DNA from: Thermoanaerobaculia bacterium | GTDB lineage: Bacteria; Acidobacteriota; Thermoanaerobaculia; Multivoradales; Multivoraceae | Assembly: GCA_963664405.1 (NCBI GenBank) | Contig: OY761158.1 | Location: 5,856,001-5,920,000 of the forward strand | Length of the DNA: 64,000 nt | Direction of reading: 5' to 3' | Part shown: positions 2,946 to 19,602 of the stretch, piece after piece | How positions within the stretch are numbered: position 1 is the first letter of the stretch | Layout of the letters: every line of letters starts with the position of its first letter | Position numbers and translations under genes: made by a program | Notes under the pieces: generated by a model | Databases searched by the model: none | What the model saw: only the letters and a program-made list of their open reading frames with translations | What the model was told of the DNA's origin: nothing

Positions 2946-4421
2946 GTGCGGCGAGGCCCCTTCTGTGTTGTAGCGGCGCTACTCGCTTGCGCCGTGGCAG
3001 CCGGGGCCCAGCGCCCCTCCGCCGGGCGCCCCAATGCTGGGCGCCCCAACGTAGTCTTGATGATCGCCGATGATCAGACCTGGACGGATTCGGGCGCCTA
3101 CGGCAACTCGGACGTACCGACGCCGAATATCGACCGGCTGGCACGTGAGGGGATGCTTTTCACTCACGCTTTTACCAGCACGGCGATGTGCTCGCCCACC
3201 CGGCAGCAGTTGTATTCGGGGATCTACCCGGTGCGCAGCGGTGCGTACCCCAATCACAGCTTCGTTCTCGATGGCACGAAGAGTCTGGTGCACCACTTCC
3301 AGGCCCTCGGCTATCGAGTCGGCCTGACCGGCAAGACCCACTTCGGGCCGCCTGAGTCTTTCCCCTTCGAGGTGGTTAGCGATGCGATCGTCGAAGGCCC
3401 AACCTCGGTTTCGGCGCCCAGAAACGTGGCCGACGTCGATCTCGAGGCGGCGCGCGCGTTCATCATGGGTGACGAGAGTGAGCCCTTCTTCCTGGTCATG
3501 GCATCTCACGACCCTCACTCGCCCTGTCCCCAGGGCGACGCCTCCCAGTTCGATCGGGCAAAGCTCACGGTGCCTCCGTACCTCGTCGACACCCCGGAGA
3601 TGCGCGAGACCCTTGCTCGGTACTACGCCGAGATCACCCATCTCGACACACAGATCGGCGCCGTGCTGACCGCTCTCGATGCGGCGGGGGTCGCTCGTGA
3701 GACCATCGTCATCTATACCAGCGAGCAGGGCGCGTCGTTTCCCTTCGGCAAGTGGACCTTGTATGACGCCGGTCTTCGTACCGCGCTGATCGTGCGCTGG
3801 CCGGGGCATATTCGAGCGGGCTCTCGCAGCGACGCGCTGGTGCAGTATGTCGATGTCGTGCCCACGCTCCTCGCTGCGGCGGGTAGCGGGGCGGTCGCCG
3901 GTCTCGACGGCAAGAGCTTTCTGCCGGTGCTCAGCGGCGATACGACCGAGCATCGGGATTACGTATACGGCGTCCATACCAACCGCGGCATCATCTATGG
4001 TAACGACTATCCGATCCGCTCGGTGCGCGATCGGCGCTACAAGCTGATCTGGAATCTCAGACCCGATGTGGTCTACCGAAACGTCATCACGGTCGCACCG
4101 AGTAACAGCGTGCTCGCTTCTTGGCAGAAGAAGGCCGAGGCCGGCGACGCCCAGGCAAGGGCGCGTCACGATGCCTATCTACAGCGCCCTGAGTGGGAGC
4201 TCTATGACCTGCAGATCGATCCGGTGGAGACCCCCGAGAACCTGGTTGACGAGCCTTCCATGGCAGGAGAGCGAAGGCGCCTGCAGGTGGAGCTCGAAGC
4301 TTGGATGGAGCAGCAGGGCGATAGGGGGTCAGGTACCGAGAGCGAGGCCACTGAGCATATGAACCCTGTGATGCTCGACCGCATCGTCGCGGGATTCGGG
4401 GAGGCGGCGCGTCCCGAGTGA
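2946..4421 (+). CDS. Secreted formylglycine-type sulfatase
   Basis: Signal peptide, RPNVVLMIADD, CSPTR sulfatase motif, GKTH, ELYDL..DP.E. Confidence 0.95.
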   Translation: MRRGPFCVVAALLACAVAAGAQRPSAGRPNAGRPNVVLMIADDQTWTDSGAYGNSDVPTPNIDRLAREGMLFTHAFTSTAMCSPTRQQLYSGIYPVRSGAYPNHSFVLDGTKSLVHHFQALGYRVGLTGKTHFGPPESFPFEVVSDAIVEGPTSVSAPRNVADVDLEAARAFIMGDESEPFFLVMASHDPHSPCPQGDASQFDRAKLTVPPYLVDTPEMRETLARYYAEITHLDTQIGAVLTALDAAGVARETIVIYTSEQGASFPFGKWTLYDAGLRTALIVRWPGHIRAGSRSDALVQYVDVVPTLLAAAGSGAVAGLDGKSFLPVLSGDTTEHRDYVYGVHTNRGIIYGNDYPIRSVRDRRYKLIWNLRPDVVYRNVITVAPSNSVLASWQKKAEAGDAQARARHDAYLQRPEWELYDLQIDPVETPENLVDEPSMAGERRRLQVELEAWMEQQGDRGSGTESEATEHMNPVMLDRIVAGFGEAARPE

Positions 4422-4838: not shown

Positions 4839-6103
4839 ATGGCGGCGGCTGGTCTGCGATTCGACCGCTTCTATGCCGGGGCGCCGGTTTGCTCGCCGAC
4901 TCGCGCGACGGTGATGACCGGCCGCACGAACGACCGAACCGGGGTGCGGGATCACGGTTACGGCCTGCGTCTCGAGGAGCACACCGTCGCTCAGGCCCTG
5001 CGCGAGGTGGGCTACGCGACCGGGCACTTCGGCAAATGGCACCTCAACGGTATCCGCGGGCCTGGCGTTCCTATCTTCGCCGATGACGACCAGAGCCCCT
5101 CTGTATTCGGCTTCGACGAGTGGCTGTCGGTGACGAATTTCTTCGATCGAGACCCGATCATGAGCCGGATGGGCGTATTTGAAGAGTTCGCGGGGGACTC
5201 TCCTCGGAGATCATCGTTCGTGAGGCGATGAAGTTCATTCGCAAGCAAGCGGCGTCTGAGCAGCCCTTCTTTACCGTGATCTGGTACGGAACGCCGCATG
5301 ACCCCATGGTCGCCACCGAAGAGGACATGAAAGGGTTCGAGGGTCTCGATGATCGCTCACGAAACCAGCTCGGAGAGTTGGTCGCGATGGATCGCAGCAT
5401 AGGCGCGCTTCGCAAGGGTTTGCGGGACCTCGGTATCGAGCGCGAGACCTTGGTTTGGTACACGAGCGACAACGGCGGACTCGAGAATGTCCAACCCGAC
5501 TCCGTCGGCGGGCTTCGCGGCTTCAAGGGCGAAGTCTATGAGGGCGGTCTTCGAGTACCCGCGATCATCGAGTGGCCGGAGACGATCACAGAGCCGCGGA
5601 TCACTCATTATCCGGCGACCACGATGGACATCTTCCCGACCTTGGCGGAGATCGTCGGCCTTCCCGACTCGGTACTCGAGCAGCCTCGAGACGGGCTCAG
5701 CCTGGCGGCGCTCTTCCACAAAGAGCTCGATCGTCGCAAGAAGCCCTTGGGGTTTCGCTATTCACACCCGGGAAGAGGGGGCGCTGCGCTGATCGACAAT
5801 GACATGAAGTTGGTCAGTCTCCACAGTGGCGAGTACGAGCTCTACGACCTCGGCAAGGACGAGAGGGAGACGACCGATCTATACGCCTCGAAGCCGGCCG
5901 AAGCCCGACGCATGCGCAGGGCGTTCGAAGCCTGGAACGCTTCGGTGGAGGCCAGCGTCGCCGGCGAGGATTATCCGGAAGGCACCACCGATCCTTCCCA
6001 GTCCGAGCCCATCTTCTGGATGGAGCTAGAGAAGTACGAGCCTTACTTCGACGAGTGGCGAAAGCGTCCCGAGTACGCCGAGAGGCTCGAGGGCAAGCCC
6101 TAG
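4839..6103 (+). pseudogene. Sulfatase, N-terminally truncated and frameshifted near 5200
   Basis: CSPTR and GKWHL in ORF 4839-5231; SDNGG, GFKGEVYEGGLRVP in ORF 5228-6103. Removing one TC at about 5199 restores [14 protein letters not shown]. The N-terminal metal-binding DD motif is missing. Confidence 0.85.
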
Positions 6104-11990: not shown

Positions 11991-14606
11991 ATGCAGCATT
12001 CGATATCGATGGGAAGGCTTTCGAGCTTCTCGGCCCGGGGAGCCGTCGTCGTTACCCTCCTCAGCTCGCTCTTTGCCTGTGCCGGGTCGTCCGATAGTGA
12101 TGACCCCCTTTCGACGGAGCTTCGACGGCAAGTCGAGCATTTCAAGGCCGAAGGGCTCGAGATCGCGACCAGGGCCGATACGCTTCAGCAGCGCAGCGAG
12201 CTGTTGTGGAGGTGGGCCAATGCCTGGGCGCTGGCCGGCCACCAGCTTCCCGTGCGTCTGCCGCTCGCCGTCCAACAGGTCAGCCAGATTGCAATCCCTG
12301 GCAGGGAAGCGACGCCGGCTCTGTTCCGCGAGATCGACACATATCTTCGCCAGCTCGCGATCGAAGATGAGGACCCTGCGGCGCTGGGGGGAACACGCTT
12401 CGCCAAGGGCGACTCGCTCGTCGCCGACAGCTGGGCCACCGTCGAGCAGATCTACACCGCTGGCTCGCGGCCTCCTCAACAAGGTGGGGTCTTTGCGATC
12501 GCTGGCCACTTCATGTCCGATCAGGGGCCTCTGCAGAATCAGGATCCGGAGGCCGATGGCTTCGTCTCCATCCGCAGCGATCGCGCTGGGGTCGCCTTCG
12601 AGACTCTGACCGTGCCCTGGTCCGGCATGCACAGCGGTGCGCAGTCACGAGATGCCCAGATACCCGCCTTCCGTCTCGGTGGCGCCGACCTCCAGCCGGG
12701 TGACACGGTCACGGTGGTTTACGGCGACCCTGCGGGAGGCTCTCGCGGCTTCCGAGTGCAGACCATGTCGACCGAGCGTCTACTCTTTCCCTTCTATGTC
12801 GACCTCGATGGCAGCGGCCATTTCTTCACTCCGTCGTGGGGCTCGCGGCGGGTCACCGGCCTGGCCGAGGTGGCCTCGCTCGATGTCTTCGTTCCCTCGG
12901 TGGTAGTTGTCGGGGAGTCGTTCGAGATCGCGGTGCGCTCGGCGGACGTTTGGTACAACCGGCCCACAGGCTCGATCCCCGCTTTCGAAGTGCGCCTGGA
13001 AGGCGAGACCGTGGCGCAGATTCCTGCCGGTACCGCCGCGGTCAGCGAGGTGCCGGACCTGAGCCTGAAGGCGGCCGGTGTCTACCGTTTCGAGGTCCTC
13101 TCCTCCGATGGCGCGCTGCGTGCTCTCTCTAACCCGATTCGAGTAGTAGAGGAGCCCGGCCAAAGGGTCTTTTGGGGTGAGCTGCATGCGCACACGGACT
13201 TTGCCGAGGCGCAGGGAACTCCCGAGGAGTTCTTCGCCTACGCCCACGAGGACGCGAGACTCGACTTCTTCTCACTCACCGAGCACGACGCCTGGCTCGA
13301 CGATCTGGAGTGGCAGGTGCTGCAGGGGCTAGCGGACCAGACCAACGAGAGCGGTGATCTGGTCGCCTTTCTCGGCTATGAGTGGACCTCGGCGCGAGAC
13401 CTCGGTGGCCATCACAACGTCGTCTTTCGGAACAGCGACAGGCAGCGGGTTCCGGTGCAAGTGGCCCCCTCGCTTGCCGAGCTCTACCGCGGCCTCGACG
13501 CCGAGGGTAGTGCAGATGACGTGTTGGTCATTCCTCATGCCCACGAGGCCGGCGACTGGACCCTGAGTGACCCGGAGCTCGAGCGCTTGGTGGAGATCTA
13601 CTCGATGCATGGCAGCTTCGAGTGGTTCGGTAACCTCTACCTCCAGAATGGCTGGGAAGTCGGCTTCATCGCCGCATCCGACGACCATCGCTCGAAGCCT
13701 GGCCTCGCACGGCCGATCTTCATGCAGGGAGCCCTCGGTCAGCGTGGCGGCCTAGCGGCGGCGGTCGCTGCGGAGCGCAGTGCCGACGCGATCTTCGATG
13801 CGCTGCGATCTCTCTCCTCCTACGCCACCTCTGGGGAGCGTATTCTCCTCGAGGCCGAGCTCAACGGCTTCCCGATGGGGAGCCGACAGCCGCAGGTGGA
13901 GGAGCGGCGTCTGCGGGCTCGGGTCGCTGGCACCGCCCCGATCCAGCGCATCGACGTCATCAAGAACGGCGACATCGCTCTGTCACGGTCATATCTTGGC
14001 CCCCAGCCGCCTAGAGCAACGTTGCTCCAGGTCTCTTTCGAGTCCTCGTCAGAGGTCTTCCCGCCGCCACGAGACAACCCGCGTCTTTATCGGTTCTGGG
14101 ACGGTACTTTGACCGTAGAGGGCGGCGAGATCGCCGCCGTCTCTCGGGTCGGACTCGACAGTCACTATCGCGACCAACTCACCGTCGACGAGACGAGCAG
14201 AACGAGCCTACAGTTCCGGATCCAGACTCGAGGCCGCCGCGATTCGTTCCTTTTGAGCTTGGCGGGTGCACGCTCGGCGACGCGCCTGCGACTCGAGCTC
14301 GAGCCCGGGCGGGAGGCCGGCATCGCGGGCCGTCTGGTGCGCCAGCCGCGCGGCGACTTGCCGCCCGCCGAGCTGTCGCTCCGGATGTTGGACCTAGCCA
14401 GGGGCCCTTCTGAGCACCCGATCGAGGTCGGCCCGTTCACCGATCGCATCACCTTCGAGCTCGTGGATGTCGAAGGTAGGATGGATCAGGATCTGGAGTG
14501 GACTGACACCGGAGCCACCGCACCGGGCGATTACTACTACGTCCGCGTCACCCAGCTCGATGGCGCCCGCGCCTGGTCCAGCCCGTTCTGGGTCGGCGGG
14601 CCCTAG
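11991..14606 (+). CDS. Large DUF3604-type (PHP-like) metallohydrolase, probable lipoprotein
   Basis: Lipobox-like LFAC, FWGELHAHT, TEHD, LGYEWT, GHHNV, IPHAH, ASDDH, YYYVRVTQLDG.RAWSSPFWV; start could be the later Met (MGRLSS). Confidence 0.85.
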   Translation: MQHSISMGRLSSFSARGAVVVTLLSSLFACAGSSDSDDPLSTELRRQVEHFKAEGLEIATRADTLQQRSELLWRWANAWALAGHQLPVRLPLAVQQVSQIAIPGREATPALFREIDTYLRQLAIEDEDPAALGGTRFAKGDSLVADSWATVEQIYTAGSRPPQQGGVFAIAGHFMSDQGPLQNQDPEADGFVSIRSDRAGVAFETLTVPWSGMHSGAQSRDAQIPAFRLGGADLQPGDTVTVVYGDPAGGSRGFRVQTMSTERLLFPFYVDLDGSGHFFTPSWGSRRVTGLAEVASLDVFVPSVVVVGESFEIAVRSADVWYNRPTGSIPAFEVRLEGETVAQIPAGTAAVSEVPDLSLKAAGVYRFEVLSSDGALRALSNPIRVVEEPGQRVFWGELHAHTDFAEAQGTPEEFFAYAHEDARLDFFSLTEHDAWLDDLEWQVLQGLADQTNESGDLVAFLGYEWTSARDLGGHHNVVFRNSDRQRVPVQVAPSLAELYRGLDAEGSADDVLVIPHAHEAGDWTLSDPELERLVEIYSMHGSFEWFGNLYLQNGWEVGFIAASDDHRSKPGLARPIFMQGALGQRGGLAAAVAAERSADAIFDALRSLSSYATSGERILLEAELNGFPMGSRQPQVEERRLRARVAGTAPIQRIDVIKNGDIALSRSYLGPQPPRATLLQVSFESSSEVFPPPRDNPRLYRFWDGTLTVEGGEIAAVSRVGLDSHYRDQLTVDETSRTSLQFRIQTRGRRDSFLLSLAGARSATRLRLELEPGREAGIAGRLVRQPRGDLPPAELSLRMLDLARGPSEHPIEVGPFTDRITFELVDVEGRMDQDLEWTDTGATAPGDYYYVRVTQLDGARAWSSPFWVGGP

Positions 14607-15277
14607 ACCCCCAGGATCTTCTGCAGGGCTTCTCTGGCCTCGTCGGGATCGAAGTCGTAGGGGCCGTGGCCGCCCTTGTAGGCAATGTTTCCATCACCGG
14701 CAGCGAGGATGTAGATGCGCTCCGGCCAGGCCGAAAAGGCGGTGCCTGTGGCGTCGCTCATGTCATCGACCAGCATCGGGATTTCCATCTCGAGCTCGGC
14801 TGCGCAGCGTCGAGCCGCCGCTTGGCGCTCCTCGAGGTTGGTGTGTTGGTTGATGTCGATACCGGCCTCTTCGTTCACCTGCAAGTTCCAGCCGTCGTCG
14901 GAGTGTGCTTCGGCAATGTAGATGACGAAAAAGTCCGCTCGGTCGCGGAACGCTTCGTACATAGCCACGAGGTCGCCGGCCCGGCGACGGAAGGGCGGTC
15001 ACGTATAGCTGCCGAAGAAGAGCACCAGAGGCCGATCGCCCACCACCTCCGGCAGGCGCACGGAGCCGGAGCTCAGGCCATGAAGCTGGACATCGGGAGG
15101 CGGATCGCCTTCGACCAGGATGTCAGGATGACGATAGGTGACCAGGGTGCAGACCACCGCCTCCTGCTCCGTGCCTTCGGTGCCCAACATGTACTTTAGG
15201 TCTCGCTCGTCGACCACTTTCTCGACTCCCAACTCGCGGAGTCGCTGGTCTTGATCCTTGGGGGCAGGCTCCGTCAA
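14603..15277 (-). CDS. Iodothyronine-deiodinase-like selenoprotein (thioredoxin fold), 224 aa, Sec at codon 93 (TGA 14999-15001)
   Basis: Track ORFs 14999-15277 and 14603-14968 are in the same frame and join as RPLVLFFGSYT-U-PPF...FFVIYIAEAHSDDGW...VDDM...AWPERIYI...YKGGHGPY, matching deiodinase motifs. TTG start has an AGGAGG RBS. Confidence 0.9.
14965..14998 (-). promoter_or_regulatory. Putative bacterial SECIS element
   Basis: mRNA after UGA reads CCGC-CCUUCC-GUCGCCG-GGC-CGGCGAC-CUC-GUGG: 7-bp upper stem, G-starting apical loop 17 nt after the UGA, possible CCGC/GUGG lower stem. Confidence 0.75.
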
Positions 15278-15297
15278 CTTCTTTCCTCCTTCGCAGC

Positions 15298-16917: not shown

Positions 16918-19602
16918 CTAGGGGGCGGCGCTCCTCGCCTCTCCTCCCACCCAGAAGGGGCTCGACCAGGCTCGCTCGCCGTCGAGCTGAGTGACGCGCA
17001 CATAGTAGTAGTCGCCCTCGTTGGTTGGACCCATATCGGTCCACTCGAGCTCCTGGTCGAGCGAGCCCTGTGGGTCGATCAGCTGAAGAGAGATGGTGTC
17101 GTTGTTGGGCTCGCCGGTGGAGCTCAGGGCGTGAACCAGGGTCGCCTGGCGGGCGTCTACGAGGCGGAGCGAGAGATCCTCACCAGGGAGGACGGTATCG
17201 TCACCCTGAATGCGACCGGGCTCGAGGTGGACCGTGATCGCCGACTCGGAGTGGGCGCCCGAGAGCTGGAGAAGAATCGTGTTTGCCCGGCCGCGCGTGA
17301 ACAGAGTGAAGTCCACCCGATCACGATCGCGAGAGCTCCTGGTGACGCTCTCGCGGTGGGTATTCTCGAGCACAGGCGCCCGTAGCTCCTCGAGGCGCGC
17401 ACCTTCGACCTCGAGCCAACCCTCGAAGACCCGGAAGTTGCGAGGGGCCTTGTGCTCGAGCACTTCCGAGCTCGAGGCGAAGCTCACCTGCACCCAGCGG
17501 TTCGGCGTCAGGTCTGCCTGTAGGTAAGGGTGGTGGTAGGCCACTTCGCCGTTTTTGATCACGTCGATGGCCTCGATGGGTGCTGTGCCAGAAGCACGGG
17601 CGACGATGCGACGCCTGGCGTCGGCGGCGAGTCGGGTTCCCACCAGAGCCCCGTCGAGGCGGGCGTCGAGAAGAATCCTGGTGCCACCGGTCGCGTAGGC
17701 GCGGATGTCGCGCATGGCGTCGAAGATATCGTTCGAAGTGGCGGCCGGGGCGAGCACCGCCGCGATCCCGTTGCGCTCGGTGTGGAAAGTGGTGCCGGTG
17801 TCTGGGTAGCCGGGGTGGCCGTGATGGTTGTCGGTCGAGCCGATGAAGCCCACCTGCCATCCGCGTTCGAGGTAGCGGTTGCCGAAGAACTCGAAGGTCC
17901 CGTGGGTGGAGGTGATCTCGATCAGACGTTCCACCGCCGGGTCGCTCTGGCTCCAATCTCCGGGTGCATGGGCATGGGGTACGACCAGCACGTCCTCCTC
18001 GGCGTAGGCTCGACGAAGGGCCTGGTAAAGGCGGGCCAGCTCCGGTGCGATCTGGGCGCTCACGCGATAGGCCACATCGTGACGGAAGAAGACATTGTGG
18101 TGACCGCCGCTGCTGGTTGCTCGGGTCCACTCGTAGCCGAGAAAGGGTACGAAGCGGCCTTCATCGAGAAAGCTCTTGGCATTCTCGCGCATCACCTGCC
18201 ACTCGCGGTCGTCGGTCCAGATGTCGTGCTCGGAGAGCACGACGAAATCGAGGCGGGCGTCGTCGCGGGCGAATCGGAAATAGTGCTCGGGGCTCCCTTG
18301 TCCCTCCGAGTACTGGGTGTGGCCGTGTGTATCTCCCCAGAACACACGAAAGTCGGGCGTCTCTTCTACCCAGATCGGGTTCGAGAGCCCCTGCAGGCGG
18401 CTGTCGGTCGAGCGCAGTCCGAGACGGAAGACACCGGGCTCCTCCAACCGCAAGCTCTCGATCACGGTCAATCCGTCGTCGCCCGCCGGAACCACCGCGA
18501 AGCTGTTGCTCTCACCGCTGCCGGTGGTGGCGTCGGGCGCCTCGGCGCCACGCCTACGAGCGGAACGGGTGCTGGTCCTGACGTTTGTCGCTGCCGCGGA
18601 GTGATATACCTGCGGCGCGTCGGCAGCTGTGACCACGTGGACCTCGTAAGCGGGGATCTTGCCGGACGAGCGGTTGTAGTAGCGGTCTTCGGATCGGACC
18701 GCCAACTCGAAGCTCTCTCCTGGGCGGACGACTGAGGGTGCGACACCTCTCACTCTCACCACCTCCGCCATACCGCTGATCTCGAGGGAGCTCCAGGCCG
18801 GAGTGAAGAAGTTTCCCTGGGCTTCGAGGTCGAGATAGAGAGGAAGCAGGAGCTGGTCGATGGACCAGCTCTGGAGCAGGAAGCCTCGCGAGCCGCCGCT
18901 GCGGTCGCCGTAGGTCAGCGTGATCGTGTCGCCCGGCTCCACGTTCTCTCCTTCGAGAGTGAAGCTCACAAGGACGCGGGCGGGCAAGGAGAGGCCGGAG
19001 TAGCCGGGGCCCGGAACGAAGCGCGCGCCGGGCCGCGAGCTACGGATCGAGATGTAGTTTTCGCCCGCCGGGTCGGTGGCTTGAAGTGGTCCCTGATCGT
19101 TGAACCCGTCGATGCCGACTCGGATCCCGCCTCCGACCCTCATCCCCAAGGCGCCAGCGGTCCACGTCTGCTCGATCGTCTGCCAGCTTCGCGCGGGAAG
19201 CGGCCCGCGGTGGGAGAGGCGGATCGAGCCCAGAGCGTTCGCGATCTCCTCTTTGACCTCCAGCTCTCGAACCCAGCCGTCAACGGCGCGGATCCAGGGC
19301 TCGGGATCGCCACGCTCGGCGATCGAGTCGCGCACCGAGATCAGTAGTGGCAGATTCTGCGGAATCGGCTGACCGGTCAAGGACACGGCGTTGGCCCAGG
19401 GCCATAGCACCTCGGCCCGCCGAGCCACGTTCTCTCGGCTCGTCGGTTCGGCTCGGACCTCGCGCTTCAACTGTTCGATCTTCGCGCGCAGTTCGGGAGG
19501 GACGATGTCGTGTCCCCGGTCCTGTGCCTTGGCTGCAGTCGAAGCCGTAGCGAGAGAAAGAGCGAGCAGGCTAGCAGGAAGGTGCAGAGTGGCTCTGGTC
19601 AT
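16918..19602 (-). CDS. Large DUF3604-type (PHP-like) metallohydrolase, secreted; paralog of 11991-14606
   Basis: Signal peptide, LWPWANA, FWGDTHGHT, SEHD, LGYEWT, GHHNV, VPHAH, STDNH, YYYVRVTQLDG.RAWSSPFWV. Confidence 0.88.
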   Translation of the reverse strand: MTRATLHLPASLLALSLATASTAAKAQDRGHDIVPPELRAKIEQLKREVRAEPTSRENVARRAEVLWPWANAVSLTGQPIPQNLPLLISVRDSIAERGDPEPWIRAVDGWVRELEVKEEIANALGSIRLSHRGPLPARSWQTIEQTWTAGALGMRVGGGIRVGIDGFNDQGPLQATDPAGENYISIRSSRPGARFVPGPGYSGLSLPARVLVSFTLEGENVEPGDTITLTYGDRSGGSRGFLLQSWSIDQLLLPLYLDLEAQGNFFTPAWSSLEISGMAEVVRVRGVAPSVVRPGESFELAVRSEDRYYNRSSGKIPAYEVHVVTAADAPQVYHSAAATNVRTSTRSARRRGAEAPDATTGSGESNSFAVVPAGDDGLTVIESLRLEEPGVFRLGLRSTDSRLQGLSNPIWVEETPDFRVFWGDTHGHTQYSEGQGSPEHYFRFARDDARLDFVVLSEHDIWTDDREWQVMRENAKSFLDEGRFVPFLGYEWTRATSSGGHHNVFFRHDVAYRVSAQIAPELARLYQALRRAYAEEDVLVVPHAHAPGDWSQSDPAVERLIEITSTHGTFEFFGNRYLERGWQVGFIGSTDNHHGHPGYPDTGTTFHTERNGIAAVLAPAATSNDIFDAMRDIRAYATGGTRILLDARLDGALVGTRLAADARRRIVARASGTAPIEAIDVIKNGEVAYHHPYLQADLTPNRWVQVSFASSSEVLEHKAPRNFRVFEGWLEVEGARLEELRAPVLENTHRESVTRSSRDRDRVDFTLFTRGRANTILLQLSGAHSESAITVHLEPGRIQGDDTVLPGEDLSLRLVDARQATLVHALSSTGEPNNDTISLQLIDPQGSLDQELEWTDMGPTNEGDYYYVRVTQLDGERAWSSPFWVGGEARSAAP

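Follow-up and report, generated by a model that had tools for sequence, protein, structure and literature searches.

Locus and gene layout

The window analysed here (the whole stretch of 64,000 nucleotides, nt, positions 5,856,001 to 5,920,000 of contig OY761158.1 in assembly GCA_963664405.1) comes from a Thermoanaerobaculia bacterium with a single-contig genome (6.78 Mb, 97% complete, 62.6% GC). On its minus strand, at 15277..14603, lies a deiodinase-like gene, preceded on the same strand by a sulfatase gene, that encodes a protein of 224 amino acids (aa) when one internal TGA is read as selenocysteine (Sec, U). The reading frame extends from a TTG start codon at 15277-15275 to a TAG stop codon at 14605-14603 and is uninterrupted save for this single TGA at 15001-14999. 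Translated with genetic code table 11, the gene falls into two same-frame open reading frames (ORFs), 14999..15277 (92 aa, ending in ...FFGSYT) and 14603..14968 (121 aa, beginning at an internal GTG). A first-pass annotation of this DNA had likewise described two same-frame ORFs split solely by a TGA, leaving the minus strand of the gene unstated, and the motifs that it quoted (GSYT-U-PPF, VIYIAEAHSDDGW and AWPERIYI) are all found exactly in the joined 224-aa product, the first of them within PLVLFFGSYT-U-PPFRRRAGD. Its remark that standard gene callers split such a gene is illustrated by public databases, where about 20 matches are post-TGA fragments of 123-145 aa. Two full-length database proteins with Cys at the Sec site (P0002 and P0003; 55-56% identity, 97-98% coverage) share the N-terminal region of the joined product, which supports the TTG start and the extent of the gene.

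We interpret window 15277..14603 as a single gene whose product is a cytoplasmic selenoprotein of 224 aa belonging to the deiodinase family, with UGA93 recoded to Sec, and we assign this reading a probability of roughly 0.92. The selenoprotein interpretation of the first-pass annotation is supported, and none of the three refuting findings that it named turned up: selA, selB and selC are present, homologues keep Cys or Sec at this column, and contigs show no other codon. Sec insertion at UGA93 and expression of the gene are predictions from the sequence. Coordinates of the gene, its parts and its relatives in the same genome are collected in Table 1.

Predicted recoding of the in-frame TGA

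Conservation of the TGA among relatives carries much of this reading. In a set of 41 related genomes that includes the present one (G000), 21 contain a match, at 30 places altogether; 23 of these places hold exactly one TGA, one holds two and six hold none. The Sec column of an alignment of 24 homologues is occupied by U in 19 sequences and by Cys in five (GSHSCP). A species scan with one genome per species returned 164 relatives, and among the best 80 of them the Sec codon is TGA in 77 and TGC (Cys) in three; a pattern search accounted for 75 TGA and three TGC, and the remaining two relatives, one with EAE where the others have EAH and one frameshifted just past the codon, were TGA on inspection. 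Every homologue examined at this column in the alignment and among the best 80 therefore has either a Sec-TGA or Cys. The best 80 relatives span at least seven phyla, with Acidobacteriota, Chloroflexota, Actinomycetota (Gaiellaceae), Planctomycetota, Gemmatimonadota/Longimicrobiales, Marinimicrobia and Verrucomicrobiota represented beside others. Relatives are common in metagenome-assembled genomes (MAGs) of soil type and extend beyond marine samples alone. The stretch itself is contained in part in seawater and marine-sediment metagenomes, and the host organism is probably marine.

The genome also holds the components expected of an organism that inserts Sec, all of them above curated cut-offs: selA (423.1 bits, cut-off 268), selB (339.8 bits, cut-off 242), selD (362.1 bits, cut-off 125) and selC, the gene for tRNA-Sec (72.4 bits, cut-off 47), which ARAGORN calls as tRNA-SeC with anticodon tca. 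Were the TGA a true stop, the locus would be either a pseudogene, derived by a change of Cys TGC to TGA, or two separate small genes, as the two table 11 ORFs and the C-terminal fragments called as separate proteins in public sets would have it. We regard this as very improbable, because TGA occupies the same column in 77/80 relatives of many phyla and in four paralogues of this genome, the Pfam and deiodinase (Dio) alignments run unbroken across it, the Sec machinery is complete, and the C-terminal ORF alone would be without the catalytic residue.

An assembly or sequencing error, or a variant code with TGA for Trp or Gly, is in our view less probable still. A database homologue with W at the Sec position (P0004) could be taken in favour of a variant code, and presumably arose when TGA was translated as Trp in gene calling. 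In contrast, contigs from two runs of two studies are identical to the window over the whole 1101-nt stretch (these are possibly the source data themselves), and a 703-nt seawater-metagenome contig that spans 14610-15282 shows 10 differences, none of them at 14999-15001. Across the contigs of four public runs (contigs, not raw reads), no other letter was found at this codon. TGA moreover terminates the sulfatase gene 20 nt upstream and four of the five paralogous selenoprotein genes, and hence serves elsewhere in this genome as an ordinary stop, and the presence of tRNA-Sec also speaks against a variant code.

Some further observations concern the recoded region and the Sec machinery. The summed contig depth in metagenome runs jumps at window 14955-15028 (for example 236 in X9, compared with 3-4 in the flanks), and many short contigs of other organisms match this motif-plus-hairpin segment at ≥85%, indicating that the nucleotides flanking the Sec codon are conserved across many taxa. 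One orthologue (L082, about 3100-3300) has EAE in place of the EAH motif, part of the catalytic relay described below, that is found in all others, and another locus (L138, about 3200-3240) has a frameshift straight after the TGA. The best selD match (L010, G000:C1:388007-388930; 362 bits) itself contains an in-frame TGA, and SelD is probably a selenoprotein in this genome as well; a second selD-like gene (L011, G000:C1:565727-566650; 243 bits) has no internal stop.

A putative SECIS element after the UGA

The first-pass annotation had pointed to a hairpin, GUCGCCG-GGC-CGGCGAC, with its loop 17 nt past the UGA, as a bacterial selenocysteine insertion sequence (SECIS), and we recover this structure at 14988..14972. 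Ten nt lie between the UGA and the hairpin, the first loop nucleotide is the 18th past the UGA, and the centroid energy is -11.8 kcal/mol. The minimal E. coli SECIS, attributed to Liu et al. in 1998, is reportedly a 17-nt stem-loop starting 11 nt after the UGA, a geometry like that seen here. The hairpin is followed by the remainder of the coding region, such that the putative element lies inside the gene. It has the form of a stem-loop directly 3' of the UGA with a G in a small apical loop, as given for bacterial SECIS elements in the relevant part of the 2005 account (PMC1088965).

Several results weigh against a functional element, and with it against recoding. Folding of the 65 nt downstream of the UGA is no more stable than that of shuffled sequences (z = 0.53; 136/200 at least as stable), and permutation of synonymous codons inside the gene gives p = 0.31 for the hairpin. 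An uninterrupted stem of ≥7 bp with a G as the first or second loop nucleotide is present in 3.1% of 40,000 random genome 45-mers and, by the same criterion, after 3.4% of 8,370 sampled TGA triplets. When 14880-15060 was scanned against Rfam at E≤10, no SECIS family matched, and the hits were three chance ones to microRNA/small nucleolar RNA families. Covariation in the register of the window is weak, the observed counts being matched or exceeded in 26-38 of 500 shuffles, and none of the public runs that hold the stretch is listed as RNA.

The weight of the hairpin comes through comparison with relatives only, and not from the window alone. Among 98 unique sequences, comprising 90 Sec forms and eight Cys forms, we scored as equivalent any hairpin with a stem of ≥6 bp, a G in the first two loop positions and a loop that begins 14-25 nt past the UGA. 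Such a hairpin is found in 74/90 Sec forms and 0/8 Cys forms, compared with 7.4% of random genome 45-mers; irrespective of the loop, the stem reaches ≥6 bp in 78/90 Sec forms, and the longest stem among the eight Cys forms measures 5 bp. The inner stems comprise 33 distinct sequences that depend on the clade (GUCGCC/GGCGAC, GAAGAUC/GAUCUUC, CGAGGUA/UACCUCG, CGAGAUU/AAUCUCG, GGCGCUC/GAGCGCC, CGGGCC/GGCCCG and more), whereas the loops are chiefly GGC, GGU, GUC or GGA, or have five nt with G first or second.

Pairing was further counted over 73 unique Sec forms aligned without gaps. In the register of the window (columns 14-20 with 24-30), 71.4% of cells pair, compared with 24-55% when the register is slid; the weak covariation in this fixed register is explained by shifts of 2-8 nt in hairpin position from clade to clade. 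Other clades use a second register (columns 18-24 with 28-34), in which 68.5% of cells are paired versus 31-44% when slid, 48 cells show a double change, and the covariation score is 0.274, a value reached by 0/500 shuffles. When the codon-permutation test was applied across homologues, 18/19 TGA forms were more stable than their own permutations and the five Cys forms scattered about zero, a result that is only supportive given that the related sequences are non-independent.

Family, fold and catalytic residues

Aligned as one sequence, the joined 224-aa protein is a member of the T4_deiodinase family, as the first-pass annotation had proposed to check: it matches Pfam PF00837 with 124.2 bits (E 6.8e-36, cut-off 27), residues 77-220 corresponding to positions 98-235 of the 237 in the profile, across the TGA. 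On the same region, the Pfam profiles AhpC-TSA and Thioredoxin_8 reach 27.6 and 21.2 bits. Among proteins of solved structure, strong sequence matches are confined to Dio3 (4tr3, E 2.7e-24) and Dio2 (9h48, E 4e-22) of the mouse, and both alignments are colinear through the motifs ...fgs.t[C/U]ppf... and ...y.eah..dgw.... Modelling with AlphaFold from 30 aligned sequences gave a predicted local distance difference test score (pLDDT) of 93.7 and a predicted template modelling score (pTM) of 0.90. The top Foldseek matches of this model are 9h48 (E 1.7e-15, target-based template modelling score, TMt, 0.82) and 4tr3 (E 3.1e-15, root-mean-square deviation 2.0 Å); thioredoxin-like proteins, ResA and peroxiredoxins (1-Cys peroxiredoxin) come next, the best at 1.4e-08, and thus the E-values for Dio2 and Dio3 are about 10^7-fold better than that of any other thioredoxin-fold structure. 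The modelled fold is the thioredoxin fold in its deiodinase variant, with the loop-D insertion present and Sec93 at the N-terminus of a helix.

The proton relay of Dio2, in the part of the structural study concerned with it (PMC11592359), consists of Ser127, Thr129, Tyr157, Glu160, His162 and His182, with Trp167 as the partner of His162. By alignment, Ser127, Thr129, Sec130, Tyr157, Glu160, His162, Trp167 and His182 of Dio2 correspond to Ser90, Thr92, Sec93, Tyr120, Glu123, His125, Trp130 and His145, so that all are present. The spacing of the motifs S-x-T-U and Y-x-x-E-x-H-x-x-x-x-W, with a His 15 residues past the Trp, is also the same as in Dio2. A further residue of possible relevance, Cys159, is kept in many orthologues and missing from others, such as the Gaiellaceae-type sequences.

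Ahead of the catalytic domain, helices are predicted at residues 6-15, 24-31 and 35-48 (pLDDT 69-91). This N-terminal extension is predicted to be soluble and is kept in P0002, P0003 and loci L061-L084; the orthologue group to which it is specific occurs in several phyla. Over the whole protein, no membrane anchor or transmembrane segment was found, the maximum Kyte-Doolittle score of any 19-mer being 0.66.

Possible chemistry

Preservation of the deiodinase-specific relay and of loop D, together with the use of Sec in 77/80 relatives, favours reductive dehalogenation of a halogenated aromatic other than a thyronine as the chemistry of this protein, a proposal that we make tentatively and hold at somewhat short of even odds. 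A preference for Sec of this extent would be expected if selenium were chemically required, as for an attack on a carbon-bound halogen. The substrate would be something other than an iodothyronine, because the residue at the position of the thyronine clamp is His204 and varies among relatives. In outline, Sec-tRNA(Sec) would be made by SelA and SelD and carried by SelB, which, so loaded, would presumably bind the hairpin as the ribosome meets UGA93, resulting in insertion of Sec. Sec93 could then act as the nucleophile that attacks the halogen of an aromatic and probably phenolic compound, yielding a selenenyl halide; the ring would be protonated through the Dio-type relay, and thiols, with Cys159 as a candidate or else an external reductant, would subsequently reduce the enzyme.

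A number of findings count against dehalogenation. The clamp that holds the thyronine carboxylate (Arg275 in Dio3, Lys241 in Dio2) is replaced by His204, and by H, Q, L, P or M among relatives; Cys168 and Cys239 of Dio3, the one beside Sec and the other in the beta-strand that follows the long helix, correspond to Tyr91 and an Ile; and Pro replaces His145 of the relay in many of the more distant relatives. No neighbouring gene is conserved across phyla in nine loci (L046-L054) and 24 orthologue loci, and the neighbourhood offers no clue to a substrate. In the portion of the 2026 review devoted to them, the functions of bacterial members are said to remain largely unknown. Our search of the literature for an assayed bacterial deiodinase of the thioredoxin fold found none, returning only flavin-dependent iodotyrosine deiodinases and unrelated work.

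The protein could instead be a genuine selenoprotein of this family with a generic role as a peroxiredoxin-like or thiol-selenol oxidoreductase (peroxidase, or protein disulfide/selenenylsulfide reductase), which we consider the main rival and only a little less probable than dehalogenation. The AhpC-TSA and Thioredoxin_8 scores on the same region and the thioredoxin-like proteins, ResA and 1-Cys peroxiredoxin as next-best folds are in keeping with it, Cys159 could serve as the resolving thiol, and the Ser at -3 from Sec would match T/S-x-x-C, which we take to be the peroxiredoxin pattern. Peroxiredoxin/AhpC-TSA and ResA-type proteins indeed share the thioredoxin fold and a nucleophile at the N-terminus of the first helix with the protein studied here, yet they score far lower (27.6 versus 124 bits; Foldseek 1e-8 versus 1e-15) and are without the deiodinase loop-D insertion. 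A redox role is also what the discoverers of the bacterial family suggested in 2005, thyroid hormones being unexpected in bacteria, according to the passage of their paper on this point (PMC1088965). It sits less well with the retention of loop D and of the full Dio proton relay, with Foldseek E-values about 10^7-fold better for Dio structures than for peroxiredoxin- and thioredoxin-like ones, and with the ratio of Sec to Cys of 77 to 3, which would suggest a chemical need for selenium.

Extending dehalogenation from this one protein to its relatives is a bolder step. That the protein, along with its large bacterial clade in which Sec is used almost exclusively, is a true selenium-dependent aryl dehalogenase acting on environmental iodo-, bromo- and chloro-phenolics is an idea that we rate as rather unlikely. 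If it held, the substrates might be compounds such as halotyrosines, bromophenols and halogenated humics, and the clade would add to the corrinoid reductive dehalogenases and the flavin iodotyrosine deiodinases a third way of reductive dehalogenation, one that needs no cofactor. The five differently targeted paralogues of this genome (soluble, membrane-anchored and secreted-looking) would then serve different substrates or compartments.

Relation to known deiodinase-like proteins

Deiodinase-like selenoproteins of bacteria were reported in 2005 from the Sargasso Sea, with four Sec and six Cys sequences and bacterial SECIS elements (Zhang, Fomenko & Gladyshev, PMC1088965, in the section on this family). 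The statement of the first-pass annotation that such proteins are known from marine metagenomes and that their substrate is not established agrees with that section. Reviews of 2022 and 2026 (PMC9312934, PMC13188914) list the family under PF00837 in their tabulated overviews. The gene described here is an additional member of a selenoprotein family known since 2005, and would not surprise a specialist. In common with the bacterial family, it has T4_deiodinase membership, an in-frame UGA for Sec, a downstream hairpin with a G in the apical loop, and Cys homologues. It differs from the family in the helical N-terminal extension of about 55 residues in this orthologue group and in the four further TGA-containing paralogues of its genome. 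A third difference emerges from comparison with the reviews' tables only: both give the family motif as UxxC, whereas the motif here is UPPF, which is of animal type. F or Y stands at +3 from Sec in 89/90 unique Sec forms, this protein included (mostly UPPF, also UPPY and UPVF), and UPYC is found in L041 only.

With animal Dio1-3 (structures 4TR3 and 9H48) the protein shares the fold (TMt 0.79-0.82), 30-34% sequence identity, the position of Sec, the S-x-T-U motif, the Y..E.H....W segment of loop D and the second relay His. Unlike the animal enzymes, it has no N-terminal membrane anchor (one of its paralogues, L043, does), its SECIS would lie inside the coding region just after the UGA and theirs lies in the 3' untranslated region, the clamp residue Arg275/Lys241 is His204, Dio3 Cys168 and Cys239 are not conserved, and the host is a bacterium, without known thyronines. 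The NCBIfam model NF038285 (deiodinase_rel, a hypothetical equivalog of 347 positions) was considered and rejected as an assignment: the C-terminal 162 residues match its positions 179-340 with 177.3 bits, below the cut-off of 250, and about 178 N-terminal profile positions are without a counterpart.

Modestly beyond what those texts hold in the parts that deal with the family are the UPPF motif, the full relay without a clamp, the dominance of Sec with its wide spread over MAGs, and the five paralogues in one genome, some of which may partly be in print. Presence of the whole animal catalytic apparatus without the hormone clamp and the use of Sec in 77/80 relatives both point to a chemistry that requires selenium, possibly dehalogenation. 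As a soluble, anchor-free protein of 224 aa, the product of this gene is a convenient candidate for the first biochemical test of the family.

Paralogues in the same genome

The genome carries four further TGA-containing paralogues, making five in all (Table 1); in each of the four, a single in-frame TGA falls in the same motif. Standard callers would split or truncate the gene in the window, and the same would hold for at least four more genes of this genome and for relatives in many phyla. About 4 kb from one of the soluble-looking paralogues (L044), an ORF at L048:10495-11346 (minus strand) matches AhpC-TSA from profile position 49 on, with the N-terminal part that would hold the catalytic residue absent; it may be another TGA-interrupted, peroxiredoxin-like selenoprotein.

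Table 1 Features of the selenoprotein gene, its upstream neighbour and its paralogues. Positions are those of the window unless a genome coordinate (G000:C1) is given.
Feature	Position	Strand	Remarks
Complete coding sequence	14603..15277	-	224 aa + TAG stop, one internal Sec codon; translation with TGA=U
Shine-Dalgarno-like AGGAGG	15285..15290	-	7-nt spacer to the TTG start; sequence read directly
N-terminal extension, ~55 residues	15113..15277	-	Three predicted helices; no hydrophobic anchor; specific to this orthologue group
Thioredoxin-fold deiodinase catalytic domain, residues 56-224	14606..15112	-	S90, T92, U93, Y120, E123, H125, W130, H145
UGA codon 93, predicted active-site Sec	14999..15001	-	U/C column of homologues; aligns with the Sec->Cys site of the mouse Dio3/Dio2 crystal constructs
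Putative bacterial SECIS	14972..14988	-	7-bp stem GUCGCCG/CGGCGAC, triloop GGC; stem from 11th nt after UGA; fold and comparison
Sulfatase, 502 aa	15298..16806	-	PF00884, 137.8 bits; TGA stop 20 nt before the selenoprotein start
Paralogue L042	G000:C1:3119647-3120111		Looks soluble
Paralogue L043	G000:C1:2219503-2220012		N-terminal hydrophobic anchor, as in animal deiodinases
Paralogue L044	G000:C1:1582527-1583027		Looks soluble
Paralogue L045	G000:C1:2329935-2330390		Distant; GCLTUPPF, signal-like N-terminus, C-terminal region of ~370 aa with EF-hand match

Gene neighbourhood

The sulfatase gene and the selenoprotein gene are probably co-transcribed. Sulfation and deiodination are linked in animals, which lends the adjacency some appeal. 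PF00884 has 139 matches across the genome, which makes this genome unusually rich in sulfatases and suggests degradation of sulfated polysaccharides. Neighbourhoods were scanned over 90 ORFs of loci L046-L054 (out of 148 ORFs in 15 loci, L055-L060 being left out) and 138 ORFs of the 24 orthologue loci. A sulfatase lies near the gene in 2/9 of the former loci and, within 3 kb, in 0/24 of the latter. Given the 139 matches in the genome, the absence from the 24 orthologue loci and the lack of any other conserved neighbour, the adjacency of sulfatase and selenoprotein gene is probably coincidental. Recurrent neighbours are confined to single groups of relatives, with aldehyde dehydrogenase and elongation factor G (EF-G) recurring among Gaiellaceae-type relatives only and gamma-glutamyltranspeptidase in the two Longimicrobiales only.

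Two paralogous DUF3604 proteins of about 870-890 aa, encoded at window 11991-14606 (plus strand) and 16918-19602 (minus strand), flank the sulfatase-selenoprotein pair. The 871-aa DUF3604 protein is encoded convergently to the selenoprotein, with an overlap of 4 nt at the stop codon of the selenoprotein gene, and in one relative (G020, locus L053) a DUF3604 gene lies about 3 kb from the deiodinase-like gene. Elsewhere in the window, at 4839-6103 (plus strand), a sulfatase homologue is spread over two frames (ORFs 4839..5231 and 5228..6103), and one of its two matched pieces has a TGA inside; this split sulfatase is probably a frameshifted pseudogene or the result of an assembly indel.

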